A stretch of 64,000 nt of DNA from an uncultured SAR86 cluster bacterium (lineage in GTDB: Bacteria; Pseudomonadota; Gammaproteobacteria; Magnimaribacterales; AG-339-G14), in the NCBI GenBank assembly GCA_902524805.1, contig CABZES010000003.1:30574-94573 (forward strand). Direction: 5' to 3'. The position numbers and the translations under genes are program-made. Below, piece after piece: positions 1 through 26,856 of this stretch; the first letter of the stretch is position 1, and each line of letters begins with the position of its first letter. The notes below the pieces were generated by a model. It searched no databases, had not been told where the DNA came from, and saw nothing but the letters and a program-made list of their open reading frames with translations.

Positions 1-1296
1 TTTAGACTCTCCTTCAAACCTAAAAACCAATGAAGGAGAGGTATTAGATGCTCTAGCTAAGCCCCAAGACTCCTCATTTTCTATTCTTATTCCATCAATT
101 AAGACTTTCTCATAGTCATTAAATTCAAATTCTTTTTTCAATTTTTTAATAATTTCAAATTTTCTTTCGTCAGTTGTATGGAGATTAATTTCTGGAGTAG
201 TAAATAGTTGAGGAAATTTACTAAACATTTCGGCAGAAGAATCTTCAGATTGAGCAATGATTTCTATCAATCTAAGAGCGGAATAAATACCATCATCAAA
301 ACCGTACCAGTCATCATTAAAAAAAATATGACCGCTCATTTCGCCGCCTAAAATTGCATTCTGTTTTAAAATTTCTTCTTTAATAAATGAATGCCCAGTT
401 CTGGTCATAATAGGGACGCCTTTACTTTTACTAATTGATTCTTTGAGCCTGGATGAGCATTTAACGTCAAAGACAATTTTACGACCTGAGTTATTTTTTA
501 AGATTTGATCTGCTATTAAAGACATGTACTGATCTGGAAAAATTATATTCCCTTTGTTATCAACCACTCCCAGTCTATCGGCATCCCCATCCAAGGCAAT
601 TCCGAGGTGAGCTTTATTTTCTCTTACCTTGACAATTAAATCTTTCAGGTTTTCAGGATTGCTTGGATCAGGGTGATGATTAGGAAAATTTCCATCAACT
701 TCGCCATAAAGTTCAATTAGTTCTATGCCTAAATCTTTAAAAAGTTTTGGCGCTACTAATCCTCCCGCTCCATTTCCACAATCAAGAACTATCTTGAGAG
801 TTCTCTTCAAATTGATTTTTGACTTAATTTCAGTTTGATAGTTTTCCAAAAGAGGAGTCTTTTGTTCTTTGCCTTCACCACAAATGAAGTCTTCATTTTC
901 AATTAAATTTTTTATTTCAGTAATGGATTCTCCCGAAAGAGGTTTTTGGTTGACTACTATTTTGAAACCATTGTAGTTTTTTGGGTTATGACTTCCTGTA
1001 ATCATTACTCCATTTCTAATTGACGTCTTAAAAGTTGAAAAATAAAGTAAAGGAGTAGGGCCTAAATCTAAATTATAGACATTACACCCAGTTGAAAGAA
1101 CTCCCTCAGTAAACAACTCAGATATGTGAGGACTAGACAATCGTCCATCTCGGCATACATTTAAAGCATCTGAATTATTTCTTCTTAGCAATGTGCCAAT
1201 TGCTTTTCCTAACTTTTTAACCAGTTCGTCTGAAAGTTCCTCATTAACGATCCCTCTTATATCATAGGCTCTAAAAACTTGAGAATTGACTTTCAT
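1..1296 (-). CDS. phosphomannomutase/phosphoglucomutase (alpha-D-phosphohexomutase family); C-terminal end lies beyond the window edge
   Basis: Absent from the ORF track because it runs off the window. Reverse translation from the ATG (cat at 1294-1296) reads MKVNSQVFRAYDIRGIV... The phosphoserine loop GVMITGSHNP (about 982-1011) and the Mg-binding DGDADR (574-591) were read directly from the sequence. Confidence 0.9.
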   Translation of the reverse strand, partial: MKVNSQVFRAYDIRGIVNEELSDELVKKLGKAIGTLLRRNNSDALNVCRDGRLSSPHISELFTEGVLSTGCNVYNLDLGPTPLLYFSTFKTSIRNGVMITGSHNPKNYNGFKIVVNQKPLSGESITEIKNLIENEDFICGEGKEQKTPLLENYQTEIKSKINLKRTLKIVLDCGNGAGGLVAPKLFKDLGIELIELYGEVDGNFPNHHPDPSNPENLKDLIVKVRENKAHLGIALDGDADRLGVVDNKGNIIFPDQYMSLIADQILKNNSGRKIVFDVKCSSRLKESISKSKGVPIMTRTGHSFIKEEILKQNAILGGEMSGHIFFNDDWYGFDDGIYSALRLIEIIAQSEDSSAEMFSKFPQLFTTPEINLHTTDERKFEIIKKLKKEFEFNDYEKVLIDGIRIENEESWGLARASNTSPSLVFRFEGESK

Positions 1297-1338
1297 ATAA
1301 ATCTCTCCTGCTTATAATGATCCTTTTTATAAACAAAC

Positions 1339-2262
1339 ATGGATACTTTAGCAAATAGAGAAGGATTTATATGGATGGACGGCCAATTAATTGATTGGGC
1401 TGATGCAAAAGTTCATGTGCTTACTCATACCTTGCATTATGGACTGGGAGTTTTTGAAGGGGTCAGGGCATATTCAACTCCAAAAGGCACAAAGATTTTT
1501 CGATTAAATGATCACACAAACAGACTTTTTGAATCTGCCAATGCGGTCAACATGAAAATTCCTTTTTCTCAGCAAGAAATAAACGAAGCGCAAAAAGAAG
1601 TTTTTAGAGTTAACGAATTGGATGAAGGTTATATAAGACCAATGTGTTTTTATGGTTCGGAAGGAATGGGTTTGAGAGCTGATAACTTAAAAGTTCACTG
1701 CATAGTTGCAGCCTGGGAGTGGCCAAGTTATATGTCTCCGGAAGCTTTTGAAAAAGGAATAAATATTAAGGTTTCTTCTTATAAGAGAGAAACAGGGAAT
1801 ATTGTCTCGAGATCAAAAGTTAATGGTAACTACGTTACATCTATCATGGCTTTGCAAGAGGCTATAAAGGAAGGCTATGACGAAGCTCTCCTTTTGGATG
1901 ATGAAGATAATATTTCAGAGGGTTCAGGAGAAAACTTTTTTATTGTGAAGAATAAAACGCTCTACACTCCAGATCTAGATGCATCTCTAGATGGGATAAC
2001 TAGAAAAAGCATCATTAGCTTGGCGGAAGAATTGGGAATAAAGGTCGAAGTAAAAAAAATAAAGTTACAGGATGTATTGGATGCAGATGAATTATTTTTT
2101 ACTGGAACGGCTGCAGAAGTTGTTCCGATTAGAAGTGTAGATAAAAAACTCATTGCCGACGGAGAAAGAGGAGAGATAACAACGATTCTTCAAAAAAATT
2201 ACTTTGATCAAGTCAGAGGTAAAAGAGATTCTTTTTCCGAATGGCTATCTGCAATAGACTAA
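1339..2262 (+). CDS. ilvE: branched-chain-amino-acid aminotransferase
   Basis: 307 aa with class IV aminotransferase motifs HYGLGVFEGVRAY and SEGSGENFF, co-linear with E. coli IlvE. Confidence 0.93.
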   Translation: MDTLANREGFIWMDGQLIDWADAKVHVLTHTLHYGLGVFEGVRAYSTPKGTKIFRLNDHTNRLFESANAVNMKIPFSQQEINEAQKEVFRVNELDEGYIRPMCFYGSEGMGLRADNLKVHCIVAAWEWPSYMSPEAFEKGINIKVSSYKRETGNIVSRSKVNGNYVTSIMALQEAIKEGYDEALLLDDEDNISEGSGENFFIVKNKTLYTPDLDASLDGITRKSIISLAEELGIKVEVKKIKLQDVLDADELFFTGTAAEVVPIRSVDKKLIADGERGEITTILQKNYFDQVRGKRDSFSEWLSAID

Positions 2263-2274
2263 AATTAAATAATC

Positions 2275-3513
2275 ATGAAAAGACTCAGGATCGCCTTCCT
2301 CAGTTATAGAAGTAATCCATACTCAGGCGGTCAAGGAATATACGTTAAATATGTAACTAAAGCTCTTGTCGATTTAGGCCATAAAGTTACAGTTTTTTCC
2401 GGACCGCCTTATCCAGACTTAGATTCGCGAGTAAAACTAGAAGTTGTACCAAACCTTGATTTGTATTCAAAAAAAAATAAATTTACTGACGTTAAACTTA
2501 AAGATCTTTTGATTCCTATAAATTTCTTTGAGTGGTTTAGCATCAATTCCGGAGGTTTCGCTGAACCTTACACTTTTGGAAAAAGAATTAAAAAAGTTTT
2601 AAAACATAGACTGGACGAATTTGACGTTATTCATGACAATCAAAGCCTTTGTTATGAGTTATTATTTTTTCAAAAAAAAATTCCTTTGGTAGCAACTATT
2701 CATCATCCGATTTCTAAAGATTTAAAGTTTCAACTCAAAAGTACCAAATCTATCTTTCTAAAGTTCCTGATGATTAGATGGCACTCTTTTTTAAGAATGC
2801 AAATAAAAGTAGCCAAAAAGTTAAATTCTGTAATCGTCGTATCGAAATCTTCAAAACAGGATATTCATGATGATTTTGGTTTGAAGAAAGAAGTTATGAA
2901 AGTGATACTTAACGGCATTGACACAGAGGCCTTTTTTCCCGATGAAAATATAAAAAAAATACCTTTTAGAATTGTTACTTCTGCAAGCGCAGACGTGCCT
3001 TTAAAAGGATTAGATTATTTACTTGAAGCTTTCTCCGAAGTAATAAAAATCTATCCAAATTCAACACTTCAAATTATGGGTAGTTCAAAACAAGGTGGAC
3101 ACACATCAAGAAAAATAAATGATTTAGACATTAAAGAAAAAGTGGAATTCAATAATGATCTTTCATTTAAGGAAGTAAGGGATTTGTATTGTTCTGCAGA
3201 TGTTGTTGTAATACCCTCTCTTTATGAAGGTTTTGGATTTGCAATTGGCGAAGCAATGGCATGTCGAGTTCCTGTGATAACTACTTCAGGAGGAGCAATT
3301 CCGGAAGTCATTGGAGATTGCGGAATTTTAGTTTCACCTGGCAACTCTAAGGAATTGGAAGAAGCAATACTCAAATTACTTCCGGATGAGGAGAAAAAAA
3401 GTTTTTTTGCTGAAAAAGGATTTAATAGAATTATTGAGCATTTACAATGGAAAAAAGTAGCAAAACTTATGACTGAAAGTTACGAAACCGAAATTAATAG
3501 AATCACCAATTAG
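2275..3513 (+). CDS. GT-B fold glycosyltransferase (family 4-like)
   Basis: 412 aa. N-terminal RIAFLSYRSNPYSGGQGIYV and C-terminal YEGFGFAIGEAMACRVPVITT (E-x7-E donor-binding motif). Starts 12 nt after ilvE; its stop abuts the next ATG (TAGATG). Confidence 0.85.
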   Translation: MKRLRIAFLSYRSNPYSGGQGIYVKYVTKALVDLGHKVTVFSGPPYPDLDSRVKLEVVPNLDLYSKKNKFTDVKLKDLLIPINFFEWFSINSGGFAEPYTFGKRIKKVLKHRLDEFDVIHDNQSLCYELLFFQKKIPLVATIHHPISKDLKFQLKSTKSIFLKFLMIRWHSFLRMQIKVAKKLNSVIVVSKSSKQDIHDDFGLKKEVMKVILNGIDTEAFFPDENIKKIPFRIVTSASADVPLKGLDYLLEAFSEVIKIYPNSTLQIMGSSKQGGHTSRKINDLDIKEKVEFNNDLSFKEVRDLYCSADVVVIPSLYEGFGFAIGEAMACRVPVITTSGGAIPEVIGDCGILVSPGNSKELEEAILKLLPDEEKKSFFAEKGFNRIIEHLQWKKVAKLMTESYETEINRITN

Positions 3514-4224
3514 ATGCAAACCGTTGATTTAAAAAAACTTGAACTAGAGCCAAATTCTAAATTTCTAGACCTAGGTTGCGGTGAGGGCAGACATTGTTTT
3601 GGAGCATACATGTCTGAAAGCATTGATGTATTTGGTTTTGATATGAGCTTGTCAGACGTAGCAACAGCAAAAAAAAATTTCGATCAATTTAATGAAAACG
3701 AATCTTCAAAAAGCTGCAATTTTGGAGTAGCTGATGCAAAGAAGCTACCATTTAAAGATAACACATTTGATTTCATAGTTTGTTCTGAAGTTTTAGAACA
3801 CATAATAGATTATCAAAGTGCACTTTCTGAGATTAATAGAATTTTAAAACCTCAAGGCAAGTTAGCAATTAGTGTTCCAAAATTTTTTCCTGAATGGGTC
3901 TGCTGGAAACTAAGTATTGATTATCAAAATACTCCAGGCGGACATGTGAGAATATTTAAATTTAAAGAATTAAAGAATGACATAACAAATTTTGGCCTTA
4001 CTTTTACGCAAAGACATTGGGCCCATGCTTTGCATTCTCCTTATTGGTGGCTTCAATGCTTATTTTGGAAATCAAAAGAAAGTTCAAGAATAATTAATCT
4101 TTATCATGATTTTTTAGTTTGGGACATGATCAAGAAACCTTTGTTGACCAAAATTTTGGAATTTATATTTCAACCATTAATTGGAAAAAGTGTAGTGCTT
4201 TATTTTAATAAAGATAAAGTATGA
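3514..4224 (+). CDS. class I SAM-dependent methyltransferase (Methyltransf_11-like) with hydrophobic C-terminal extension
   Basis: Motif I LDLGCGEGRH and post-I/II FDFIVCSEVLEH. The Trp-rich tail HSPYWWLQCLFW is not part of the Rossmann core. ATGA overlap with the next ORF. Confidence 0.85.
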   Translation: MQTVDLKKLELEPNSKFLDLGCGEGRHCFGAYMSESIDVFGFDMSLSDVATAKKNFDQFNENESSKSCNFGVADAKKLPFKDNTFDFIVCSEVLEHIIDYQSALSEINRILKPQGKLAISVPKFFPEWVCWKLSIDYQNTPGGHVRIFKFKELKNDITNFGLTFTQRHWAHALHSPYWWLQCLFWKSKESSRIINLYHDFLVWDMIKKPLLTKILEFIFQPLIGKSVVLYFNKDKV

Positions 4225-5216
4225 TAAGAAATTTATTGGGTTCATATAGTCATTTAGGGGAATATATAATTTCCTGCCAGGAAAAAAATGGAGCCATCGC
4301 TTGGGAGCCAAGATCTAAAATAGATCCATGGGATCATGTTGAATCAGCCATGGGCTTAGATGTTTTAGGCTTTGAAGATAATTCAAAAAAAGCATATGAA
4401 TGGCTCATTGATTCTCAAGAAAATGATGGATCTTGGTTCAGCCAATATAAAGATGGAGAAGTTACAAACTTTAGGAAAGAAACTAATTTTACGGCTTACA
4501 TTGCGACTGGAGCTTGGCACCATTACCTTAATTTCGAAAATATAAAATTTCTAAAAGATCTATGGCCAACACTCGAAAAAGCAATGAACTTTGTTCTTGA
4601 TGGTCAGACAAACGACGGCGATATTCTTTGGGCAAAAGATAAAACCAATAAATGGATGGACGATTCATTGCTTACCGGGTGCTCTTCTATTTATAAAAGT
4701 CTGGTTTGTGCACAAAATATTTCAAAAGAATTAGGTATTGAAAAAGAAGCTTACAAAAAAGAAATTTCTATGATTTCTGAGGCAATAAGAAATAAACCTG
4801 AGAGATTTGACAGATCATGGGAAAGCAAAAGTAGATATAGCATGGATTGGTATTATCCGATTTTATGTGGAGTCATTGATGGTGAAGACGCTGTTGAAAG
4901 AGTGAATAAAAAATGGCATAAATTTGTAGTTAAAGACTTAGGCTGTAAATGCGTGGAAGAGGAACCTTGGGTTACCGCAGCTGAATCCTGTGAATTAGTT
5001 CTCGCATTAAATAAAATTTTAGAGAAGGAGAAAGCAGAAGCTATTTTTAAAGATGTGTTGAATTTAGTCGATCCAAAAAGCAATCTTTTCTGGACAGGCT
5101 ATGTTTTTAAAGACAAAAAATATTGGCCTACAGAAAAACCTAGCTGGACAGCAGCAGCAGTTATTTTAGCTGCCAATTCACTTTATAAATTCACCAAAGC
5201 TTCAGACTTTTTCTAA
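4221..5216 (+). CDS. alpha/alpha-toroid protein with prenyltransferase / squalene-cyclase-type repeats; function unknown
   Basis: 331 aa. Three Q-x-x-[ND]-G-x(0-2)-W repeats (CQEKNGAIAW, SQENDGSWF, GQTNDGDILW). No DxDD or DDxxD catalytic motif seen. Translationally coupled to the upstream methyltransferase. Confidence 0.6.
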   Translation: MIRNLLGSYSHLGEYIISCQEKNGAIAWEPRSKIDPWDHVESAMGLDVLGFEDNSKKAYEWLIDSQENDGSWFSQYKDGEVTNFRKETNFTAYIATGAWHHYLNFENIKFLKDLWPTLEKAMNFVLDGQTNDGDILWAKDKTNKWMDDSLLTGCSSIYKSLVCAQNISKELGIEKEAYKKEISMISEAIRNKPERFDRSWESKSRYSMDWYYPILCGVIDGEDAVERVNKKWHKFVVKDLGCKCVEEEPWVTAAESCELVLALNKILEKEKAEAIFKDVLNLVDPKSNLFWTGYVFKDKKYWPTEKPSWTAAAVILAANSLYKFTKASDFF

Positions 5217-5804
5217 AATAGCTAGGGATTTCACAAGCTCTATCTCTTTAAAGCTCTTAGATTGTTTTGCAACGCAAAAAATCTCATATGGAGGCCTTCC
5301 GCCATCTTCAGGATTTGGAAAAACGTCATGAATAGCAAGCAAGCCTCCTGAAATTATATGTTTACTCCAACAATCAAAATCGTTCTTAGCTGCCTCCATG
5401 CTATGGCCCCCATCAATAAATAAAAGGCCCAAAGGAATTTCCCAATTTCTAGAAATTTCAACTGAATCACCAATAATTGGAATTATATTTTCTAAAAAGG
5501 GAGATTTTTCAATATTTTTTAAAAACTCTGGCAGAGAATTAAACCTGTTTAATCTTGCGTCAAAGAGGTCTTTATCATGATATTCCTCTCCAACTTGATG
5601 CTCTTCAGAACCAATATGATGATCTAAGGTAAAAATATAACTACCATTTCTATTGCATGCCTCAGAAAACATTAAAGCTGATTTGCCGCAATAAGTTCCG
5701 ATTTCCAATGTAGGCCCTAAAGACGAAGTTTTATCAATTAAGCTCGAAAGTTTTTTTGCTTCAGTATCGTCTAGAAAACCTTTAACCTTATCTAAATATT
5801 CCAT
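5202..5804 (-). CDS. class I SAM-dependent O-methyltransferase-like protein (Methyltransf_24 / metal-dependent type)
   Basis: LEIGTYCGKSAL (motif I) and LLFIDGGHSMEAAKNDF...GGLLAIHDV. I place the start at MEYLDKVKGF (cat at 5802-5804) rather than ORF-track position 5918, which would overlap the divergent gene. Confidence 0.75.
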   Translation of the reverse strand: MEYLDKVKGFLDDTEAKKLSSLIDKTSSLGPTLEIGTYCGKSALMFSEACNRNGSYIFTLDHHIGSEEHQVGEEYHDKDLFDARLNRFNSLPEFLKNIEKSPFLENIIPIIGDSVEISRNWEIPLGLLFIDGGHSMEAAKNDFDCWSKHIISGGLLAIHDVFPNPEDGGRPPYEIFCVAKQSKSFKEIELVKSLAILEKV

Positions 5805-5826
5805 AATTAAATATAGTTTAAAAATA

Positions 5827-6732
5827 ATGACCGATAAAGATAAAGCTTCTAGAGAAGAATTTTTTTTGAATGGTGAAAGTTTTTCATATCTTTTTTTTAA
5901 GGGAAGCACTCTCCTCAATCCAATTATTTTTTTTCATGCTACTGGGCTTAATTCCGCAACTTATTTGAAATTACTATCAAAGATTTTTGATAGTTTTGAC
6001 GGAAAGAGGTCTATTTATGCTTTTGATCAAAGAGGACATGGATTGAGTAAAGCGGAAGCTGATTACAAAAAATTAAAATCTTGGGGGCAGTTTTCAAAAG
6101 AGGCTATTTCTTTTTTAAATTCTCTTGGTCACGGAAGCATTGACTTAATGGGGCACTCAATGGGAGGAATTGTTGCTTCAGAAATAGCTAGTCAATTAAA
6201 ATTTAAGGTAAGAAATTTAGTCATGTTAGAGCCGGTTTTATACTATGCACCAGAAGACGTTATGAAGTTGAAAATAAAAAAGTTACTACAATTTGGCGAT
6301 TATAGCGCTTCCGATAAATCTTCAAGTGCAAAACAAAGAAGAAATAATTTTGACAGTTTAAAGCAAGCTATAGAGCATTTTACTGGAAGAGCAATGTTTG
6401 TGAGTTGGCCTGAAGAATCTATTAAAAATTATTTAGAAGGAGGATTGGTCCAAAGAGAAGGTAGCTTTTTTCTTTCTTGTGACCCGGCTTGGGAAGCAAA
6501 AACTTTTGAAACAGTAACTTTCGACACATATAAGTTTTTAAAAAGATTAACTTGTCCAGTTCTAATAATCAGAGGGGACAAAGAAACTTCAACTTTTACT
6601 GAGGAAGCTAAAAAAGCATTATCAAAAAAAGATAAAATACTAATCGAGGAGCACAAAGGCTCGCATTTTCTTCCTATTGAAAATGTTGAATTAATTTCTT
6701 CGAGAGTATTTAATTTTTTAAATAAAGATTAA
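5827..6732 (+). CDS. alpha/beta-fold hydrolase
   Basis: 301 aa. Oxyanion region FFHATGLNS, nucleophile elbow GHSMGG, C-terminal GSHFLPIE (catalytic His region). Confidence 0.8.
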   Translation: MTDKDKASREEFFLNGESFSYLFFKGSTLLNPIIFFHATGLNSATYLKLLSKIFDSFDGKRSIYAFDQRGHGLSKAEADYKKLKSWGQFSKEAISFLNSLGHGSIDLMGHSMGGIVASEIASQLKFKVRNLVMLEPVLYYAPEDVMKLKIKKLLQFGDYSASDKSSSAKQRRNNFDSLKQAIEHFTGRAMFVSWPEESIKNYLEGGLVQREGSFFLSCDPAWEAKTFETVTFDTYKFLKRLTCPVLIIRGDKETSTFTEEAKKALSKKDKILIEEHKGSHFLPIENVELISSRVFNFLNKD

Positions 6733-6756
6733 TGTTAAAGTTATTTTTTATATCAA

Positions 6757-7572
6757 ATGGCAAAACCAGAACCCAATAAAACTATATCCCTGCAGACTTT
6801 TAGAGATTTAAAACAAAAAGGTGAAAAGTTTGCTGCTTTAACATCTTATGAGGCTACTTTGTCATCAATGATGTGTGATGCTGGAGTAGAACTCATTTTA
6901 GTTGGCGATAGCTTGGGTATGGTGATTCAAGGACATGATTCTACAGTGCCAGTTTCGATGGAAGATATTTTGTATCATTTAAGATGTGTCAAGTCAGGAA
7001 ATAAGGGAGCTCACTTAATGGCAGATATGCCTTTCATGAGCTACGCTACAGAGCAACTTGCTTATGAAAATGCTACTCGGCTCATGCAGGCTGGAGCAAA
7101 TTCAGTAAAAGTTGAAGGCGGGGAAGTAATTCTTAAAATAACTGAGCTTTTGTCTGAAAGAGGAATTCCAGTTTGTGCCCATATGGGGCTCACTCCTCAA
7201 TCAATAAACAGAATAGGTGGGTTTTTTGTTCAAGGCAGAGATCCTTCTTCTCATTCAAAAATAATAGAAGAAGCTTTGAGCTTGGAGAGTGCAGGAGCTG
7301 AGCTGTTGTTATTAGAGTGCATTCCAGACGAATTAACAAAAAAAATTGCCGAAGTTGTCAAAATTCCAACTATTGGAATAGGGGCAGGTTTGGAAACCGA
7401 CGGACAAATAATGGTCGTTCATGACATGCTTGGAGTTTCTTGTTTAGAAAAACCGCCAAAGTTTGTAAAAAATTTCTTAGCGCAGAATAATTCTATTTTT
7501 GAAGCAATAAAGGATTATGTGAGGTCAGTAAAATCCTCGTCTTTTCCAGCCAAAGAACATTGGTTTGACTAG
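6757..7572 (+). CDS. panB: 3-methyl-2-oxobutanoate hydroxymethyltransferase
   Basis: 271 aa with ILVGDSLGMVIQGH and VKVEGG motifs; followed by panC. Confidence 0.95.
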   Translation: MAKPEPNKTISLQTFRDLKQKGEKFAALTSYEATLSSMMCDAGVELILVGDSLGMVIQGHDSTVPVSMEDILYHLRCVKSGNKGAHLMADMPFMSYATEQLAYENATRLMQAGANSVKVEGGEVILKITELLSERGIPVCAHMGLTPQSINRIGGFFVQGRDPSSHSKIIEEALSLESAGAELLLLECIPDELTKKIAEVVKIPTIGIGAGLETDGQIMVVHDMLGVSCLEKPPKFVKNFLAQNNSIFEAIKDYVRSVKSSSFPAKEHWFD

Positions 7573-8423
7573 TGAAAATTATCAAAAAAATTGGTGATTT
7601 AAAAATTGTTGATAAAGAAAGACCTATTGCTCTTATTCCTACAATGGGAAATTTACATGCAGGTCATTTAAGTTTAGTTAAACAATCAAAAAACTTAAAG
7701 TTAACTTCGTTAGTAACTATTTTTGTTAACCCTCTTCAGTTTGGCCCCGATGAAGATTTCGAAACATATCCAAGAACAATTGCTCAAGATGAAGAAAATC
7801 TTGAAAAAGAAAATTGCGATTTTCTTTTTCTTCCCGACAAGACAGAATTGTTGAAGGGAATAAAAAATTTAAAAGCTCCATTTTCAAATTTTCTATGTGG
7901 GAAAAGTAGACCTGGACATTTCGATGGAGTAATAACTATAGTGAATCGATTTCTAGAACTATTAAATCCGGAATTTTGTTTTTTTGGACAAAAGGATTTT
8001 CAACAGCAATTAATTATCCACGATCACTTAAAAAAAAATAATTTCTCTACAAAATTAATTGTGGGCCAAACAATAAGGGATTCCAATGGTCTAGCGTTGT
8101 CATCAAGGAACAACTACCTATCTGAAAGAGAAAAAAAGAACGCGTCTTTGATTTATACATATTTAAAGGAAATAGTTGATCAATTAATGCAAGAACTTGC
8201 AAAAGACTCTTTGAATATTTCGACAAACGTTTTAATAACTTGTGAAAAATATAAAAATAAATTTGAAGAAGAGGGTTTTAAGATTGATTACTTAGAAATT
8301 CTAAATGCTAAAAATTTGAAAAAACTAAAAAAAGGAGATACAGAAATACTTGTTGCAGTTGCAGCTTATTACAAAGGAGTGAGGTTAATTGATAACTTAA
8401 TCTGCGATTTATCTTCTTCTTAA
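7572..8423 (+). CDS. panC: pantoate--beta-alanine ligase
   Basis: GTG start sharing 1 nt with the panB stop (TAGTG). PTMGNLHAGHLSLV (HIGH-type motif) and FGQKDFQQ. Confidence 0.93.
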   Translation: MKIIKKIGDLKIVDKERPIALIPTMGNLHAGHLSLVKQSKNLKLTSLVTIFVNPLQFGPDEDFETYPRTIAQDEENLEKENCDFLFLPDKTELLKGIKNLKAPFSNFLCGKSRPGHFDGVITIVNRFLELLNPEFCFFGQKDFQQQLIIHDHLKKNNFSTKLIVGQTIRDSNGLALSSRNNYLSEREKKNASLIYTYLKEIVDQLMQELAKDSLNISTNVLITCEKYKNKFEEEGFKIDYLEILNAKNLKKLKKGDTEILVAVAAYYKGVRLIDNLICDLSSS

Positions 8424-9299
8424 TAAATCATCGGGGTAAAAAGATGCTTCACCTTCTGGCCTATTTTTAAATCTTCTATGAGACCATAAATAATTATCAG
8501 GATTTTTTTTGACACATTCCTCTATAGCTTGATTTATTTTTTTTAAATCTTTTTCTGCATCCTTTCCACATAAGTCTAAATTAATTAAATTGATTTCATA
8601 TTTAAACTTCTTTTTATTTACCGTGAATAAATAAACATCACAATTTGTTCTTTGAACAAGAATTGAAGGAAAAATTACAGTCAAAGCTTTGTGACCAAAA
8701 AAATCAACAAAAACAGAATTTTTGTAGCCGTAATCTTGATCGGGAGCGTAAAGACAAGCTTTCCCATTTTTAATAGAATCTAAAAATCCACTGCCTTCAT
8801 GCGGTCGAAATATTCTTTCTGTGATCTTATTTCTACTAGCAGTTAATAAATTATCAATTATTTTTATACTTTGTTGCTTAGCCATCCCAGAAACGGTCAT
8901 AAATAAGGAAGTTATTCTAACGACAAGGTCAACGTTGGGGGTGTGCATCACTAGAAGAAGTTTTCCTTTTTGAGGATTTAATTTTGATGTTAATTCCTCA
9001 ATTTCTTCAAAATTTAAAATTGTTTTCTTTATTTTATTATCTGAGGCCCAAAAGGCATTCAAAAATTCAAATAACGACTCTCCGATTCTAAAAAAACTTT
9101 CTTTTAAAATATTATTAATTTCATTATCATTTTTTGAAGGAAAGCATTTTTTCAGATTCCATCTAGCAATTTCTCTTCTTTCTTTAAAAAACAAATAGAA
9201 GACAGAGCCCAAACCTTTGCCTAAAAAAAATTGTAATCTTTGAGGGAGAAGACTTAATAGTTTTAAAATTAAGTAAACAAAATACTCTATAAATTTCAT
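8409..9299 (-). CDS. lpxL: lipid A biosynthesis late acyltransferase (LpxL/HtrB family)
   Basis: 296 aa. N-terminal membrane anchor, HX4D motif (HTPNVD), divergent from waaA. Confidence 0.8.
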   Translation of the reverse strand: MKFIEYFVYLILKLLSLLPQRLQFFLGKGLGSVFYLFFKERREIARWNLKKCFPSKNDNEINNILKESFFRIGESLFEFLNAFWASDNKIKKTILNFEEIEELTSKLNPQKGKLLLVMHTPNVDLVVRITSLFMTVSGMAKQQSIKIIDNLLTASRNKITERIFRPHEGSGFLDSIKNGKACLYAPDQDYGYKNSVFVDFFGHKALTVIFPSILVQRTNCDVYLFTVNKKKFKYEINLINLDLCGKDAEKDLKKINQAIEECVKKNPDNYLWSHRRFKNRPEGEASFYPDDLLRRR

Positions 9300-9360
9300 T
9301 TTAATAAACTTTCAAATTGTATATTTATAAGATTAACCTATTTAGTCTAGAATCACCTTA

Positions 9361-10626
9361 ATGTTGTTTCTCTATAATTTTCTTACCTTTCTATATTTGC
9401 CAATCGCTGTAGCTAGACTCTTTTATAAAAAGAAATTTTCTATTGATGAATTTTATAGATTAAAGGAAAGGTTTGGGTTTTTTGATAATGATGAAGTGCT
9501 TCATAACAAGAAGATAATCTGGGTTCATGCAGTGTCTGTCGGCGAAGTAAATACATCTATAAATTTGATTAAAAGTTTAAAAAAAACTTTTCCTAATAAG
9601 AATATTCTTGTTACAACAACGACAGCGACAGGTTCAGCTATTTTAATGAAAAAATTTAAAGAGGGTATTTTTCATCAATATTTGCCGTTCGACATAATTT
9701 TTTTTATAGAAAAATTTTTAAACTACTGGAAGCCCGAGTGCTTAATCTTGATAGAAACCGAAATTTGGCCAAACTTGATTAATAATAGTTCAAAAAAGAA
9801 TATTCCAATAATTTTACTTAATGGGAGACTCTCGGATAAATCTTTGATGAACTACAAAAAAATAAGAAGTCTTTTTTCAAAAATTTTTATGAAATTGAAT
9901 CTGATTATTGCACAGTCAGAAAAAGATAAAAGAAATTTTTTAGAGATTGGAGCTAAACTGGATAAAGTCCACATTGATTCTTCTTTAAAGTTTGATGCTT
10001 TAGAGCAAAATACTTTAAAACCATCTTTTGATTTTGAAGAAAAATTTGTTAATCAAAAGAAAATAATTACTTGTGCCAGTACACATCCTCAAGAAGAAGA
10101 AATTCTTTATGAAAGTTTTAAAATTTTAAATGATAAATCCGCTCATCTAGTTCTTGTTCCTAGGCACCCAGAAAGAGCAAATTTCATAGGTAGCTTTTTA
10201 AAGAAAGAAAACGCCATTTTTTCTTTTCTTTTCAATGGCGAAAAGCTTATTTTAAATCTCGACAACGAAGTAACTATTGTTAATGAAATCGGCCATTTGA
10301 ATTATCTTTACTCAATTTCTGATTTAGCTTTTATAGGAGGGACATTGATAGAACATGGGGGTCAAAATTTTCTGGAACCACTTAAACATGGCATTCCTCT
10401 TAGTGCAGGGAGTAGTGTTTATAATTTTCAAGAAATTGCTGATCAATTATCTGAATTAAAATTACTTAAATATGGAAATACAGCAGAAGAAATTGCTTCT
10501 ATTTGGTATAAAGAACTTGCAAGCAATGATCCTCAACTCATAAAAGAGAGAAGTTTTAACTATATTGCTTCACACAAAGGCTCTTTGGAAAGATCAGTGG
10601 GAAAGATAAAAGAATTTATTTTATAA
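9361..10626 (+). CDS. waaA: 3-deoxy-D-manno-octulosonic acid (Kdo) transferase
   Basis: 421 aa with WVHAVSVGEV and the VPRHPER motif typical of KdtA/WaaA. Confidence 0.93.
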   Translation: MLFLYNFLTFLYLPIAVARLFYKKKFSIDEFYRLKERFGFFDNDEVLHNKKIIWVHAVSVGEVNTSINLIKSLKKTFPNKNILVTTTTATGSAILMKKFKEGIFHQYLPFDIIFFIEKFLNYWKPECLILIETEIWPNLINNSSKKNIPIILLNGRLSDKSLMNYKKIRSLFSKIFMKLNLIIAQSEKDKRNFLEIGAKLDKVHIDSSLKFDALEQNTLKPSFDFEEKFVNQKKIITCASTHPQEEEILYESFKILNDKSAHLVLVPRHPERANFIGSFLKKENAIFSFLFNGEKLILNLDNEVTIVNEIGHLNYLYSISDLAFIGGTLIEHGGQNFLEPLKHGIPLSAGSSVYNFQEIADQLSELKLLKYGNTAEEIASIWYKELASNDPQLIKERSFNYIASHKGSLERSVGKIKEFIL

Positions 10627-10689
10627 CTTCAAATCTTTGAATGCGTCTTAAATTAGGAGTAACATATCGAATCCCCCAGTAATTATTAA

Positions 10690-12663
<1,974 letters not shown>

Positions 12664-12747
12664 AATTCTCTCCCTAAAAGCTTATTAAAATCGTTTTTTA
12701 ATTCTAAGTTATCATTTAACCTATTTAGAACTCAAGATAAATTAATT

Positions 12748-13668
12748 GTGAATATTGTTAAACCAATCATTTCAATAATGGGCCCAACAAACACAGGAAA
12801 AACTTCCTTGGCCATTAGTCTTGCTGAAAAGCTAGACGCTGAGATTATTTCAGTTGATTCGGTTCAGATCTATAAGTACGCTGATATAGGTAGCAATAAA
12901 TTAAAGCCAAATCTGTTAAAAGATCATCCTCACCATTTAATCAATTCGATTGAGCCGCAAGATTCTTATTCAGTTGGAAACTTTAGGAATGATGCTATAA
13001 AAACAATAAATACATTAGATGAAAAAAACAAAAATATCATTCTGGTTGGAGGGACGATGATGTATTTCAATTCTTTATTCAAAGGCATTTCCGACTTGCC
13101 AGAAAATGACTTAGAAATAAGGCGACAACTTGATGCAGAAGAAAAGAAATATGGCATAAATTTTTTATATCAAAGACTTAAGAAGATTGACGAAGAATCG
13201 GCTCTTAAAATTCATAAAAACGATCAACAAAGGATCAAAAGATCATTAGAGGTCTTTATCAAAACAGGAGAGACTCACAGCAAATTAAAGAAAAAAATTG
13301 CATTCAACCCTCTTGAAAACAGAAATTTTTTAAATTTTGCAATTGTTCCGGAAGATAAAAAACTTTTTAAAAAAAATTTAAATGCAAGATTTCAAATGAT
13401 GTTAGACCAAGGCTTGGTAGAAGAAACAAAATTTCTTATCGAAAAGTTTTCAAAAAACGTAAAATTATTGAGCTCAGTTGGCTACAAGCAAGTAGTGGAA
13501 TATCTTGAAGAGAAAACTTCTCTTGAAGAGATGATTGAGAAAGCAACTAACGCAAACTATCAGCTTTCTAAAAGACAAATAACTTGGTTAAAAAAATTTA
13601 AAATCACAGAAACTTTTTCGACCAATCAATCGAATATGGTTATAAAAATTCTAAATTATTTAGAATAG
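12748..13668 (+). CDS. miaA: tRNA dimethylallyltransferase
   Basis: P-loop GPTNTGKT and DSVQIYK. I prefer the in-frame GTG at 12748. The track ATG at 12652 adds 32 non-conserved residues and overlaps the divergent gene start. Confidence 0.9.
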   Translation: MNIVKPIISIMGPTNTGKTSLAISLAEKLDAEIISVDSVQIYKYADIGSNKLKPNLLKDHPHHLINSIEPQDSYSVGNFRNDAIKTINTLDEKNKNIILVGGTMMYFNSLFKGISDLPENDLEIRRQLDAEEKKYGINFLYQRLKKIDEESALKIHKNDQQRIKRSLEVFIKTGETHSKLKKKIAFNPLENRNFLNFAIVPEDKKLFKKNLNARFQMMLDQGLVEETKFLIEKFSKNVKLLSSVGYKQVVEYLEEKTSLEEMIEKATNANYQLSKRQITWLKKFKITETFSTNQSNMVIKILNYLE

Positions 13669-23600: not shown

Positions 23601-26600
23601 ATGTTTAAAAAATTATTTATTTTATCAATTATGGCAGCCATGCCGTTTGTTGCTTTTACTCAAGCAATTGAGGAAGTAACTGTTACGGCAACAAGAAAGT
23701 CAGAATCCGTGCAAGATATTGCACTATCGGTCCAAGTACTTTCTGCAGAAGATATTGGCGAGAATAAAATTCTTAATGCTGCTGATTTGCAACAATTAGT
23801 TCCTGGGTTCAGCTATGTGCAAGGAATAGGTTCTGGATCTGGTTATTCCATTAGGGGTCTATCAGTTCCAGCTACTGGTTCTGCAACCACTGATGCTGCC
23901 GGTTCAGCAGTCAACAACCACTACGTCAATCCTACTATTATTGGGTATATCGGTTTTATGGATGCGGAAAACGTACAGGTTCTTGAAGGACCTCAAGGAA
24001 CTTTGTACGGACGAAACACTACTACGGGACTAATGAATGTGGTGACTAATACTTATGGCGCAGGAAATTATGTTTCTGTAAACACAGGTGAAGATGGTTA
24101 CGGCGTTGTAAAACTTGGTTACGATCTTGATTTAGGCCTTGATAGTGTAACTGCAAGACTTGCCTACCAAGCAAAAACCAAAGATGGGATGGTCTTTAAT
24201 AAAGTCACTGATACCGACATTGACAGTAGAGACGCTAGTTCGGGTCGAATTTCTTTAGCTTTCGATGCTGCTAGCAATCAAATAATTAACCTAATGTACG
24301 AGCATCATGAAGCGGATGACAATAGATTAAACAGAGGAACAGCGATGTGCTCAAGAGAAGCTTTTTATGGTTGTAGTCCTTTAGAAAGAGGAGACATTAA
24401 TGAACCGTACATGATCTCTGGGACCGTCAGTAACACTTGGGCTGATTTAACTCAGACAAACAGATTAATAACTTCACCTCAATTAGGTAAAGTAGATTAC
24501 TACGCTGGTACGGAAGCTCTTGCTGGAAATTCTATTGATCAAGTTTATAAGACAAGAAACTTAGAACATGCATTCGACTATGATTTAGTGCAACTTGAAC
24601 ATATCTGGGATATTTCTGACGAATTAGAAATGACTTCAAAATATTCATACTCGGATTGGGATTTTCGTCAGGTGGACGATAATTCTCACTCGCACCCCTC
24701 AGCTACACTTGTATATGACTTAGGACCTTTAACATTAGGTTCCGCAGCTTATCCGTTTAAGTACAGATGTATGCCAGAGCAAAATACAACTAATCTAACT
24801 GAGGCAATTGAGTGTTCAAATGTGAATACTGATATTGATCAATTTGAAATTAATTTAGTTTCAGATTTTGACGGACCGCATAACTTTACTGCTGGTCTTT
24901 ACTACTATGAATCTGAATCTTTCAACCAATATTCAATTCAAACCACTGCCTACGCGGTAGCTGGAGATTTCCAACTTCACCCACTATCACAGGTTCTTTT
25001 TAGTGGTGCATTAGATGGCTATGGCGGTACTTCTTTTTTCCAAACTCTCTATGGAACAATAACTGGAGGTGCAAGTGGAACTCTTGAAGCGCCAGCTGGA
25101 TCTCCTCCTGCAGTTCTAGGAGCATTTGCAGCAGCAAATGGATACGCTGCAGCTTTACAAGCTTATGCGACGGATCCAACTCCTGGCGGTGCAGCTGAAA
25201 CTGCTTATAAACAAGTAGGTGCAGCTATGGCGGCCATCATACAACAAGCTGGTCTCACTAAGAAAACAATTCCTTGGGAAAACCGTGGTTCTATGACTGA
25301 CCAAAGAAGCACAATCGATACAACGGCGCTTTTTGGTGAGTACTATTATCAAATAAACGACGATTTGAAACTTACTTTGGGTGCAAGATTCATGGATGAT
25401 AACTATGTTTCTCAATCAACAGGTGGTCTGTTGGATGGTGCAAGTGGTTATACCTCGACAAGCACTGACTATGAAACGGGTTATCAAGAATCAGCTACTC
25501 TGTCAGATGGTGGAAGCGATGAAGAGATGTTCAAAGTTGCTCTTCAATATGACTTTTTAGATGACAGTATGGTTTATGCATCAGCAGTGACCGGTGTTCG
25601 TCCTGGTGGAATCGAGCCGACGGGTGCTTTGTATGATGCTGAAGAAACTACCTCTCTAGAGCTAGGAACCAGAAATATTTTAATGGACGGTCGCCTAAAG
25701 CTTAACGCTACTTATTTCTCTCATGAGACAGAAGGAGCACAGTTTTCAAACACAAGAGGTTTTTCAGCTTACGTAGAAGCGCAAGATTTTACTCAGACTG
25801 GTATCCAAGTTCAGGCTGAATACAACCTTACAGATTCTACTATTCTTAAATTCAGCGCACTCTCAATTGATAGTGAGATGGATGGAAATAATAATGTTTC
25901 GGATGTACTTAATCCTACTGGAATGAAGTCTGTATTAGGCGTGTACACAGCTTCAACCTTATCAACAGGAATTGATCAGTTTGTTGCGCCGGTTTCAGCC
26001 GCGTTAGCAGCCGGCTTTAAGTCTGATCTTGATGGAAGTGGATCTCTGGATATAATAGATGCCTGTGTTGCAGGAAATGCACTATGTGGAGCAGCGGCAT
26101 TCGCAATAACTACATCTGAAATGCCAAGTGGCTTTGATATACTCGCTAACCCATTGGGAACAATTACTTGTTTGACTTGTATTGCTCTTTTCGGAAATGA
26201 TCCAGCAACTAATGCAAATTTGTATAGTCAAACAGGCGTCAACTCAAGTGATGCAGCTATGTTAGGACAATATGCACCTAGCCTTGCTGGAAATGAAGTA
26301 CCTGGTTCACCTGATCTAGATTACAACATCTCAATCACTCAATTCTTTCCAGTTTTTAATGGAATTGGTTCAGCGACTTTGTTGTTCTCTCACAAAGGTG
26401 AGTTCTATACCGATATTTGGAATAGAGAGCATCAAAAAGTAGAAGAAGCAGACTTTATTGATTTGCAAACTTACTTCAGACCTAACGATGGCGATTGGTA
26501 TGTTTCTCTTTGGGCTAAAAACCTTGAAGATAAAAGAAACATAACTTCAATTGGAAGCGGAAGCCCTTTGCAAGGAGGAATTAGCTTTGTAACTTTTGAT

Positions 26601-26642: not shown

Positions 26643-26663
26643 AAATCTCATAAAATAACCCCG

Positions 26664-26696
26664 AAAAGCCCTGCTCAAAAGCAGGGCTTTTTTTTT
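26664..26696 (+). terminator. Rho-independent terminator after the first TonB-dependent receptor
   Basis: AAAA-GCCCTGC-tcaaaa-GCAGGGC followed by a run of 9 T. 7-bp GC-rich stem, located 22 nt after the stop codon. Confidence 0.85.
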
Positions 26697-26706
26697 CTAC
26701 GAATGC

Positions 26707-26735
26707 TTGTCTTATAAAAATAGCTAGGGTATTAT
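26707..26735 (+). promoter_or_regulatory. candidate sigma-70 promoter for the second TonB-dependent receptor
   Basis: TTGTCT (26707-26712), 17-nt spacer, TATTAT (26730-26735). Lies just downstream of the terminator and leaves a leader of roughly 115 nt. Confidence 0.45.
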
Positions 26736-26856
26736 CGAAAAATAGGGGAGACATATAGACTTGTAGCAAGACGCTTCAACCTTTCAATAGTCAATGGATT
26801 GAGAAACAGAAAGTTTGTTTCTTTATTTACATTTGTACTCAAATTGGGAGGAGTCA

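Follow-up and report, generated by a model that had tools for sequence, protein, structure and literature searches.

The nearest described counterparts of the locus analysed here are the mycobacterial clusters for methylmannose polysaccharide (MMP), MHAS_04402-04405 of M. hassiacum and MSMEG_6481-6484 of M. smegmatis, with the gene order manT-meT3-mmpH-meT1 (Maranha 2023, PMC9883506). MMP-type clusters also occur in Streptomyces, and S. griseus makes an acetylated MMP; in these clusters the manT-meT3-mmpH triad is colinear, meT1 lies on the opposite strand and, in loci with a meT1 match, it lies downstream beyond unrelated genes, at a distance of 2.3-7.8 kb. A study of the MMP cluster by Ripoll-Rozada in 2019 reportedly included the structure of MeT1. 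No prior report of an MMP cluster beyond Actinobacteria was found in the literature.

A similar logic is seen in the locus for 6-O-methylglucose lipopolysaccharide (MGLP; Rv3030-Rv3037c), where a GT4 alpha-1,4-glycosyltransferase and SAM methyltransferases lead to a polymethylated polysaccharide that binds lipids in the cytoplasm. The literature consulted lists neither a hydrolase of the MmpH type nor a reducing-end methyltransferase of the MeT1 type among the MGLP genes. GT4 mannosyltransferases and O-methylation of mannose by SAM-dependent enzymes are likewise combined in Gram-negative hosts, in the terminally methylated polymannose O-antigens of E. coli O8/O9a (WbdA-D, Wzm/Wzt) and the 3-O-methylmannan O-chain of Oligotropha carboxidovorans. 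These chains are undecaprenol-linked and ABC-exported, with the length in O8/O9a controlled by WbdD, and their systems possess neither an endomannosidase nor a reducing-end methyltransferase. Their export and length-control components are all missing from the vicinity of the SAR86 module.

Layout of the SAR86 locus

The window, a stretch of 64,000 nucleotides from an uncultured SAR86 cluster bacterium, carries at 2275-5804 a group of four genes that is probably a complete orthologue, in the SAR86 chromosome, of the actinobacterial cluster for MMP biosynthesis and recycling. The relevant features are as follows:

1-1296, minus strand: PGM/PMM-family mutase, cut by the window edge (context only)
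1339-2262: ilvE, flank of the module
2275-3513, plus strand: manT, GT4/GT-B glycosyltransferase, 412 aa
3514-4224, plus strand: meT3, Methyltransf_11/31 SAM methyltransferase, 236 aa
4221-5216, plus strand: mmpH, alpha/alpha-toroid protein, 331 aa
5202-5804, minus strand: meT1, Methyltransf_24 methyltransferase, 200 aa counted from ATG
5827-6732, plus strand: alpha/beta hydrolase gene, 301 aa, a neighbour outside the conserved module
6757-7572: panB, flank of the module
7572-8423: panC, flank of the module
8409-9299, minus strand: lpxL-type acyltransferase, flank
9361-10626: waaA, flank

All five open reading frames of the cluster proposed in the initial annotation were present, together with the flanks it had named (ilvE, panBC, lpxL, waaA and the upstream phosphomannomutase), and its junctions were exact when read from the sequence. 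The manT and meT3 genes meet at TAGATG (3511-3516), meT3 and mmpH share an ATGA overlap (4221-4224), mmpH and meT1 converge with a 15-nt overlap (5202-5216), and meT1 and the alpha/beta hydrolase gene diverge from a 22-nt spacer (5805-5826); a further 12 nt separate the ilvE stop codon from the manT ATG. A longer TTG-initiated meT1 ORF reaching 5918 was discarded, as the alignment of homologues gave it no support. In contrast to the Streptomyces loci, the four SAR86 genes are contiguous or overlapping.

The module has the four protein families of the mycobacterial MMP cluster in the same order. The GH57 branching enzyme, acyltransferases and glucosylglycerate-primer genes of the MGLP locus are missing from it, and its glycosyltransferase, hydrolase and second methyltransferase matched the MMP enzymes specifically, not those of MGLP. 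Of the resemblance to polymethylated-polysaccharide loci noted initially, the MMP half thus deepens into orthology of three enzymes in the order of MHAS_04402-04405, whereas the MGLP half falls away. The host differs from mycobacteria in being a streamlined marine gammaproteobacterium of low GC (~32%) that has an outer membrane; ilvE, panBC and LPS-core genes border its module, and the product is predicted from the genes.

Relatives and conserved residues of the module products

The direct comparison with the mycobacterial enzymes suggested in the initial annotation identified ManT, MmpH and MeT1 of M. hassiacum as by far the nearest characterised relatives of three window products, at about 40% full-length identity to these crystallised proteins, a level at which regio- or linkage specificity may still differ. 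The 2275-3513 product, with Pfam domains Glyco_trans_1_4, Glycos_transf_1 and Glyco_transf_4, aligned over residues 4-410 with ManT (7QSG; phmmer E=7.4e-84, 40.0% identity); the next-best solved GT4 reached E=8e-15 and all remaining ones were weaker. The mutagenesis-validated or signature residues G15, H142, K240, E313 and E321 of ManT were retained as G18, H143, K244, E318 and E326, the K240A and E321A mutants of the reference enzyme being inactive, and the mannosyl loop PSLYEGFG was invariant from SAR86 to Mycobacterium. The gene is therefore predicted to encode a GT4 (GT-B) alpha-(1->4)-mannosyltransferase orthologous to ManT, whose nucleotide-sugar donor is presumably GDP-mannose. Unlike the mycobacterial enzyme, the window protein lacks Asp293, a guanine contact proposed by analogy only: Phe298 takes its place, the position is F, R, Q, E or H across SAR86, and an acidic residue two positions further on is conserved. 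No gene for GDP-mannose pyrophosphorylase (manC) was found nearby in the SAR86 DNA examined.

The toroid protein at 4221-5216 matched M. hassiacum MmpH over its full length (7QSJ; phmmer E=8.8e-82, 41.3% identity). Its AlphaFold model (pLDDT 94.3, pTM 0.93) was searched with Foldseek, as had also been suggested, and the top match was again 7QSJ (TM 0.94, rmsd 1.3 Å, E=7.7e-34), followed by a second match with E=1e-8. The 11 residues published for the active site and subsites were all retained and were invariant in alignments A1 and A2 (D47/W49/D50 as D35/W37/D38, N101/F102 as N89/F90, T163 as T152, M215/Y219 as M208/Y212, E262/E265 as E255/E258 and W315 as W309). In the reference enzyme D47 and D50 are the candidate acid pair and E262 the base, alanine mutants being inactive, and some of the retained subsite residues are hydrophobic and have been suggested to accommodate a (methyl)mannose unit. 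Weak profile matches were obtained to TIGR01577 (GH15-like), Bac_rhamnosid6H and squalene cyclase repeats. GH15 and GH125 glycosidases (clan GH-L) and prenyltransferase/terpene-cyclase toroids share the alpha/alpha-toroid architecture, but showed 9-15% identity and TM 0.56-0.77 to the window protein, compared with 40% and 0.94 for MmpH. The name "prenyltransferase", under which MmpH-type hydrolases appear in public databases, was rejected for this gene, since prenyl/terpene toroids reached a TM of about 0.57 at most. The initial suspicion of a glycoside hydrolase was correct, and homology and model together indicate an (alpha/alpha)6-barrel alpha-(1->4)-endomannosidase orthologous to MmpH.

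The 5202-5804 product aligned over residues 4-199 with M. hassiacum MeT1 (6G7D/6G80/6H40; phmmer E=2.2e-51, 40.8% identity) and had no further solved relative, the next match having E=0.64. The motifs LEIGxYCGxS, DHHxGSEExQ, FIDGxH and IHDVFPxP..GGxxP are common to this family and the M. hassiacum enzyme, and the gene is predicted to encode the orthologue of the MMP reducing-end 1-O-methyltransferase MeT1.

At every locus MeT3 (Pfam Methyltransf_31/11/23/25) is encoded between manT and mmpH, with 50-73% identity within SAR86 and 40-44% to the actinobacterial gene of the same slot. Its closest solved relative, 3BUS, is deposited simply as "Methyltransferase" and corresponds to the sugar O-methyltransferase RebM; another is 6UV6, a D-glucose O-methyltransferase. 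The Trp-rich C-terminal region (H.LH.PYWW..C ... L.WD ... KS.V.Y) was kept in all four lineages sampled, and a scan of MeT3 revealed no TM-grade hydrophobic stretch. The protein appears to be a class I SAM methyltransferase and the positional orthologue of pMeT3, for which 3-O-methylation is putative, mycobacteria included. No signal peptides or TM-grade segments were detected in any of the four module proteins, which appear to be soluble and cytoplasmic, as in mycobacteria.

Synteny, distribution and neighbouring genes

The synteny survey, likewise proposed at the outset, covered 80 loci from SAR86 (16 loci from 16 species-level genomes) and, as 64 non-SAR86 loci, from Parvibaculaceae/Rhodobiaceae (Alphaproteobacteria), Syntrophaceae and Actinobacteria. 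The genes co-occur well beyond SAR86: manT, meT3 and mmpH kept their order and shared orientation in 76 of the 80 loci across these four phylum- or class-level lineages, far more than chance would produce. The meT1 gene converged on the triad in 63 loci, including all 16 from SAR86. Module proteins were 38-47% identical between SAR86 and other lineages (38-45% for Streptomyces) with identical gene order, and the flanks were unrelated from lineage to lineage. In the concatenated tree each lineage was monophyletic, and the GC content of the cluster (~32%) equals that of the remainder of the window, which indicates long residence in SAR86 and no recent transfer.

The conserved unit consists of four genes, not the five first proposed. 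The alpha/beta hydrolase gene (Pfam Abhydrolase_1/6, GHSMGG nucleophile elbow) adjoined meT1 in 11 of the 16 SAR86 loci with 33-56% identity and was absent from the other five (L006-L010) and from every one of the 64 loci outside SAR86. This SAR86-only neighbour has no close characterised homologue (best PDB match 3KXP, E=6.7e-10) and may be a lineage-specific accessory esterase. The gene at 1-1296 (Pfam PGM_PMM domains I-IV), about 1 kb upstream of manT, could supply mannose-1-phosphate; the functional link hinted at initially was not supported, because the gene stays with ilvE instead of the module and sits beside ilvE in 13 SAR86 loci, both with and without LPS genes between ilvE and manT.

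Probable product and alternative readings

The probable MMP identity of the module is supported by the specific homology of three products, the gene order, the retained residues, the fold, the synteny and phyletic pattern, and the phylogeny. The initial view that the product is not predictable from the sequence is not supported: four apparently soluble cytoplasmic proteins suggest a polymethylated mannan that is small, neutral and amphipathic and stays inside the cell. By homology to M. hassiacum and M. smegmatis we infer which sugar donor is used, how the units are linked, where they are methylated, how long the chains are and what physiological role they play. ManT would add mannose from the nucleotide sugar to short alpha-(1->4)-oligomannoside primers, and MeT3 would methylate the 3-OH of the added mannoses with SAM as methyl donor. 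MmpH, an inverting endomannosidase, would cut mature chains into defined oligomers from which further chains are primed ("partially conservative replication"), and MeT1 would add a 1-O-methyl cap to each fresh fragment at its free reducing end.

It is unlikely that the methylated oligomannose is instead placed on the SAR86 lipid A-core, either capping it in the manner of an O-chain or substituting the core. The envelope-biogenesis context behind this LPS/LOS reading, already raised in the initial annotation, was borne out: in SAR86 the module was never more than a few kb away from LPS-core genes, with lpxL and waaA 2.7-3.8 kb downstream in the window. The L006/L009 sub-clade had GT9 heptosyltransferase, FkbM methyltransferase and Kdo/WaaP kinase genes between ilvE and manT, and hldE, lpxL and an hldD-like epimerase gene downstream; L011-L016 had a GT9 gene immediately before manT. 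Poly-3-O-methylmannose also has a precedent in the alpha-1,2-linked O. carboxidovorans O-antigen (PMC9883506). However, the insertion sites of LPS genes differ among SAR86 clades, which looks like neighbourhood rather than operon membership, and no recognised LPS-core genes were seen in the flanks of the Alphaproteobacteria and Syntrophaceae modules. No Wzm/Wzt ABC transporter, flippase, O-antigen ligase or polyprenol-phosphate glycosyltransferase was found at 1-12.7 kb of the window, and the module has an endo-hydrolase as one of its core members. Such decoration is disfavoured because the characterised MeT1 reaction requires a free reducing-end 1-OH, which a glycan attached to lipid or core does not have (PMC9883506), and because the same module occurs in LPS-free Actinobacteria.

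An MMP-like soluble oligomannan could also act as a cold or osmotic protectant or a carbon reserve, not as an acyl chaperone. FAS-I, the proposed partner of MMP in mycobacteria, is missing from Proteobacteria, which have type II FAS, and the polymer may therefore play a different physiological part; SAR86 inhabits cool surface seawater. The sole genetic phenotype reported for MMP loss is that growth slows at 15 °C but not at the optimum (PMC9883506). This is nevertheless improbable, as heavy O-methylation and a capped end make the molecule amphipathic, non-reducing and hard to metabolise, properties ill suited to a reserve and unusual for an osmolyte (PMC9883506). Just as small is the chance that the module makes a different methylated glycan, with another donor or hexose, linkage or methylation pattern. 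The replaced Asp293, the lack of a nearby manC, the modest identity to the reference enzymes and the extra acetyltransferase and B12-radical-SAM genes of Syntrophaceae modules, a sign that chemical variation is tolerated, speak for it; against it stand the invariant mannosyl loop and 11 MmpH subsite residues, the PMM-family gene upstream, and the analogy-based status of the Asp293 contact beside a conserved acidic residue.

The non-actinobacterial carriers in this survey (SAR86, Parvibaculum and Syntrophaceae) are all known as specialists oxidising fatty acids, alkanes or lipids, which fits lipid binding better than a protectant or reserve. As proposed for mycobacteria, the polymer of an MMP-type module may sequester long-chain fatty acids or acyl-CoAs, and a role in low-temperature growth is also possible. 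Its retention in SAR86 genomes of 1.05-1.66 Mb points to a selected function, and beta-oxidation is described as central in SAR86 carbon metabolism (PMC11582366). The MMP machinery, described so far solely in Actinobacteria, is probably complete and well conserved in an abundant ocean bacterium, where a lipid-buffering glycan would suit a metabolism centred on lipid uptake and beta-oxidation.

Gene content and identity of the encoded enzymes

The five open reading frames reported in the initial annotation all exist exactly at the coordinates claimed there. Four of them, here called manT, meT3, mmpH and meT1, form the module under study.

Genes of the module and its neighbors (family assignments of the five open reading frames from Pfam/NCBIfam)
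2275–3513, plus strand: manT, 412 aa, GT4/GT-B glycosyltransferase
3514–4224, plus strand: meT3, 236 aa, Methyltransf_11/31 SAM methyltransferase
4221–5216, plus strand: mmpH, 331 aa, sub-threshold matches only, to the six-hairpin glycosidase models Bac_rhamnosid6H and GH15-like TIGR01577
5202–5804, minus strand: meT1, 200 aa from ATG, Methyltransf_24
5827–6732, plus strand: alpha/beta hydrolase, 301 aa
1–1296, minus strand: PGM/PMM-family gene, flank of the module

The gene junctions were likewise confirmed from the sequence. The manT start lies 12 nt from the ilvE stop, manT and meT3 are joined by TAGATG at 3511–3516 with 0 nt between the genes, and meT3 and mmpH overlap by 4 nt in the ATGA at 4221–4224. 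The mmpH and meT1 genes converge with an overlap of 15 nt (5202–5216), and the starts of meT1 and the alpha/beta hydrolase gene (5804 and 5827) diverge, being 22 nt apart. The flanking genes were present as stated, the further ones being, in order, ilvE, panB, panC, an lpxL-type acyltransferase gene and waaA. A longer meT1 reading from a TTG start at 5918 was ruled out by the alignment of homologues. The GC content stayed at about 32% all along, and the composition did not shift at the module. In the region 1100–7000, 15 promoter-like and 2 terminator-like sites were counted, compared with 19.5 ± 5.0 and 3.4 ± 1.9, respectively, in shuffles, and the Rfam scan of the window gave no matches. Neither signal peptides nor hydrophobic stretches of transmembrane grade were found in the module proteins, establishing their soluble character.

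The mmpH product, an alpha/alpha-toroid protein, was compared with all PDB sequences and matched 7QSJ over its full length (E = 8.8e-82, 41.3% identity), the next-best solved match in the phmmer search being a squalene-hopene cyclase at E = 0.15. The 7QSJ and 7QSG entries represent MmpH and ManT of M. hassiacum, respectively (Maranha et al. 2023, PMC9883506), and the functional residues of both enzymes were taken from published structure and mutagenesis work. All 11 published MmpH residues are kept in the window protein and are invariant both in an alignment including M. hassiacum and in an alignment of 21 marine members.

Published MmpH residues and their counterparts in the window protein
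Asp47/Asp50 acid pair and Trp49: D35, D38 and W37
Asn101 and Phe102: N89 and F90
Thr163: T152
Met215 and Tyr219: M208 and Y212
Glu262 (base) and Glu265: E255 and E258
Trp315: W309

In the Foldseek comparison suggested in the initial annotation, the toroid protein as modelled by AlphaFold (pLDDT 94.3, pTM 0.93) matched 7QSJ best (TM 0.94, rmsd 1.3 Å, E = 7.7e-34). Glycosidases and sugar epimerases came next, with E values near 1e-8, and terpene synthases/cyclases reached a TM of 0.56–0.58 at best. The TIGR01787 model gave 15.5 bits, its cutoff being 322.7. A prenyltransferase, squalene-hopene cyclase or terpene cyclase identity was thus ruled out by sequence and fold, and the guess of the initial annotation that the protein could be a glycoside hydrolase rather than a prenyltransferase turned out to be right. 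Sequence and modelled fold identify the product as an MmpH-type glycoside hydrolase, a predicted endomannosidase.

The manT product matched 7QSG over its full length among all PDB sequences (E = 7.4e-84, 40.0% identity), with the next solved match at E = 8e-15, so that ManT was ahead by about 70 orders of magnitude. The ManT residues Gly15, His142, Lys240, Glu313 and Glu321 are all kept as G18, H143, K244, E318 and E326, the mannosyl-binding loop PSLYEGFG is invariant and Leu291, a presumed guanine contact, is kept as L296. The residue corresponding to ManT Asp293, for which a contact with guanine N2 was proposed only by analogy to PimA, is Phe298 in the window (codon at 3166–3168). SAR86 proteins have F, R, Q, E or H at this position and Syntrophaceae proteins vary here too, while Actinobacteria and most Alphaproteobacteria have Asp. 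Two residues further on, an acidic side chain is retained in nearly all cases. No GDP-mannose pyrophosphorylase gene (manC) was matched in the window and the homologous loci by a crude N-terminal regular expression.

The minus-strand methyltransferase matched 6G7D, 6G80 and 6H40 with its residues 4–199 (E = 2.2e-51, 40.8% identity), the next solved match among all PDB sequences having E = 0.64. The matched PDB chain is named just "Methyltransferase domain protein" and we take it to be M. hassiacum MeT1. The family-invariant MeT1 motifs are all common to the window protein and the M. hassiacum enzyme, and the 5202–5804 product fits a predicted Methyltransf_24-type reducing-end 1-O-methyltransferase. 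For MeT3, there was no close solved relative; the best PDB match was 3BUS, deposited as "Methyltransferase" and presumably the sugar O-methyltransferase RebM, and 6UV6, a D-glucose O-methyltransferase, was also among the matches. The gene fills the pMeT3 slot between manT and mmpH in every related locus, with 40–44% protein identity to the actinobacterial gene product of the same slot. All lineages conserve the Trp-rich C-terminal region of MeT3, which argues for a hallmark of the family rather than a membrane anchor. The 3514–4224 product is the positional orthologue of pMeT3, with a 3-O-methyltransferase activity that is putative in the reference organisms too.

[quoted passage not shown] Judged by sequence, the locus shares the features of an MMP cluster testable in silico, with GDP-mannose as the putative donor. 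The likeness to loci for polymethylated polysaccharides (PMPS) noted in the initial annotation from gene content proved, as far as MMP is concerned, to be true orthology, and its opinion that the product was not predictable from the sequence was not upheld. The comparison with the methylglucose lipopolysaccharide (MGLP) did not stand: the MGLP locus has GH57 branching enzyme, acyl/acetyltransferase and glucosylglycerate-primer genes beside GT4 and methyltransferase genes, whereas none of these were found in the window between 1 and 23.4 kb, and the homology points specifically to MMP enzymes. An MGLP-type locus was, therefore, ruled out.

Public databases name the module proteins "prenyltransferase", "glycosyltransferase family 4 protein" or "hypothetical protein", and NCBI records label the MmpH homologue "prenyltransferase". 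The identification of an MmpH-type hydrolase corrects this widespread mis-annotation. According to the paper on the SAR86 isolate, "glucoamylases (sga1)" are encoded in a majority of SAR86 genomes (PMC11582366); given its weak GH15-like TIGR01577 match (56 bits), the MmpH homologue may have been counted as a degradative "glucoamylase" in metabolic reconstructions.

Distribution and genomic context of the module

The search of a collection of 5.8 billion proteins revealed 4,201 relatives of the MmpH homologue at E ≤ 1e-10, the closest of which were almost all marine-metagenome proteins; clustering at 50% gave 177 representatives at E ≤ 1e-30. One protein (MBV13250.1), at least 90% identical to a SAR86-type sequence, is attributed to a Flavobacteriaceae MAG, the source contig of which was probably mis-binned. 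The scan of GTDB species-representative genomes detected the homologue in at least 596 species, and the locus counts given here rest on the best 80 of these matches.

Taxonomic assignment of the best 80 of at least 596 GTDB species matches
SAR86 or uncultured Gammaproteobacteria: 16 loci, best match 70% identity
Parvibaculum, Parvibaculaceae, Rhodobiaceae and other Alphaproteobacteria: 7 loci
Syntrophaceae or "Deltaproteobacteria": 5 loci
Actinobacteria (Streptomyces, Embleya, Marinactinospora, Rhodococcus): 52 loci

With its 70% identity, the best match places the window in a genome of the SAR86 clade. The synteny and phyletic pattern of the module were established by tblastn with the window proteins. 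Colinearity of manT-meT3-mmpH on a single strand was seen in 76 of the 80 loci, the other four being truncated contigs or one degraded draft, and 63 loci had meT1 downstream in the reverse orientation. This gene directly adjoins mmpH in all 16 SAR86 loci and lies several kb off in Streptomyces. The genes flanking the module are unrelated between lineages, which indicates that the module of four genes is self-contained and portable. In the tree of concatenated ManT, MeT3 and MmpH, the SAR86, Alphaproteobacteria, Syntrophaceae and Actinobacteria sequences were each monophyletic, and several deep sub-clades were visible within SAR86. The monophyly of the lineages together with the native GC is evidence against recent acquisition, and a recent horizontal transfer from Actinobacteria was not supported. 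At least 16 SAR86 genomes of species level, about 1–1.7 Mb in size, carry the complete module with intact catalytic residues.

In three Syntrophaceae loci (L030, L035 and L044), 2.5–3.3 kb are inserted between mmpH and meT1. The L030 insert (8997–12190) encodes a hexapeptide-repeat acetyltransferase, an unknown protein of 194 aa and a B12-binding radical-SAM enzyme, which suggests an acylated or further-modified methylmannan; acetylated MMP is made by S. griseus.

The alpha/beta hydrolase gene, for which no close or informative characterised homologue was found, adjoins meT1 in 11 of the 16 SAR86 loci, including four (L002, L013, L015 and L016) in which extra DNA parts it from panB. Its absence from the remaining SAR86 loci (L006–L010) and from all non-SAR86 loci among the 80 ruled it out as a fifth module gene. 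The cluster is, hence, not the five-gene unit presumed in the initial annotation; the hydrolase was treated as a lineage-specific neighbor. The PMM gene stays beside ilvE whatever separates ilvE from manT and was ruled out as a module component as well.

In the SAR86 locus L006, genes for a GT9 heptosyltransferase, an FkbM methyltransferase and a Kdo/WaaP-family kinase are located between ilvE and manT (2698–5975), and hldE, lpxL and an hldD-like epimerase gene follow meT1 (9734–13080). Another SAR86 locus, L011, has an LPS-core gene insertion between ilvE and manT (5113–6069). Such insertions in other sub-clades indicate that in SAR86, the module is embedded in a variable envelope-biogenesis region.

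Further along the window, an AMP-binding, acyl-CoA-synthetase-like gene (11041–12663, minus strand) was noticed downstream of the module, at a distance of 4.3 kb. The 5' end of this gene and the annotated start of the divergent miaA (12652–13668, plus strand) overlap by 12 nt; since the IPPT domain of MiaA begins only at residue 72, the true start of miaA is probably later. An ORF of 112 aa (10708–11046) with a TTG start, resembling by eye a P-II (GlnB-like) nitrogen regulator, directly follows waaA; neither glnA nor amtB lies near it in the annotated part of the window. Three very large ORFs of 1013, 1126 and 1055 aa, located in 23601–30195 and 35943–39110, could be candidates for TonB-dependent receptors or RND-type transporters.

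Nature of the product and alternative explanations

The reference MMP is a cytoplasmic chain of 11–14 alpha-(1→4)-linked 3-O-methylmannose units with a 1-O-methyl aglycon. The window product would be cytoplasmic like MMP, as suggested by the lack of signal peptides and transmembrane segments in the module proteins. It is quite probable that the module is functional, of the MMP type and makes a free methylated oligomannan.

With lpxL and waaA situated 2.7–3.8 kb downstream of the module in the window, and with the GT9, FkbM and Kdo/WaaP kinase genes upstream and hldE and hldD-like genes downstream of it in other SAR86 clades, the main alternative is that the product decorates LPS or LOS. The poly-3-O-methylmannose O-antigen of Oligotropha (PMC9883506) also speaks for it. 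On the whole, we consider such a role improbable. Conservation of the module is just as strong in Actinobacteria, which have no LPS, and in Proteobacteria without recognised LPS-core genes in its flanks. The MeT1 reaction needs a free anomeric hydroxyl, which is missing on a lipid- or core-linked glycan. Moreover, an endo-hydrolase is integral to the module, and no exporter, ligase or polyprenol-phosphate glycosyltransferase was found near it in the window. The ABC-transporter-dependent polymannose O-antigen pathway (WbdA-D with Wzm/Wzt) was ruled out, as no such genes lie nearby: Wzm/Wzt exporter, WbdD-type terminator and polyprenol-linked assembly genes were not detected among the ORFs of the window between 1 and 23.4 kb, nor were the Wzm/Wzt/WbdD-type genes among the annotated flanking ORFs of L006 and L011.

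Diverged chemistry, by which the module would make another glycan, seems slightly less probable still. A non-lipid physiological role, which concerns the function and not the identity of the system, was given the same small chance. These estimates overlap with that for an MMP-type product and are not meant as shares of one whole.

Proposed cycle and significance

If the enzymes act like their homologues in the mycobacterial cycle, which is experimentally defined, ManT would add alpha-(1→4)-mannose onto oligomannoside primers of at least three units and MeT3 would 3-O-methylate the added mannoses. MmpH would then cut the mature chains asymmetrically, yielding defined oligomers that re-prime the synthesis, and MeT1 would cap the newly exposed reducing ends with 1-O-methyl groups. 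The predicted product is a small, neutral, amphipathic, cytoplasmic methylmannan. Its donor sugar, linkage, sites of methylation, chain length and role are assigned here by homology.

Parvibaculum and Syntrophaceae are fatty-acid or alkane oxidisers. The proposal for mycobacterial MMP is that it sequesters long-chain acyl-CoAs and fatty acids (PMC9883506). Such a role is attractive for SAR86, in which beta-oxidation is described as central to carbon metabolism and the genomes are only 1.05–1.66 Mb (PMC11582366). Loss of MMP has a single reported genetic phenotype, slow growth at 15 °C (PMC9883506), which makes a role in cold adaptation a live alternative.

MMP and MGLP have been described as mycobacterial/actinobacterial molecules linked to the unusual lipid biology of those hosts, and the published survey of MMP genes covered Actinobacteria only (PMC9883506). 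No literature linking MMP or MmpH to SAR86, Proteobacteria, marine bacteria or non-Actinobacteria was found in a search in which subscription journals were poorly covered. The system itself is known; what appears to be new is the orthologous module in unexpected, ecologically important hosts. For SAR86, of which a first isolate, HIMB1674, now exists (PMC11582366), 3-O-methylmannose and 1-O-methyl-capped alpha-1,4-oligomannosides are predicted.

The module reaches Gram-negative lineages (SAR86, Parvibaculaceae and Syntrophaceae) specialised in lipid/hydrocarbon oxidation, which provides a natural and independent test case for the long-debated fatty-acid-chaperone idea. A trait supposed to be actinobacterial is thereby extended to a bacterium that is among the most abundant in the ocean. 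We tentatively propose, with somewhat less than even confidence, that cytoplasmic PMPS are not peculiar to actinobacteria and that beta-oxidation-specialist Proteobacteria make an MMP-like, self-templating methylmannan buffering long-chain fatty acids/acyl-CoAs. If true, PMPS would be a widespread, ancient adaptation to lipid-based metabolism and would represent a previously unrecognised methylated-sugar pool in marine biomass.
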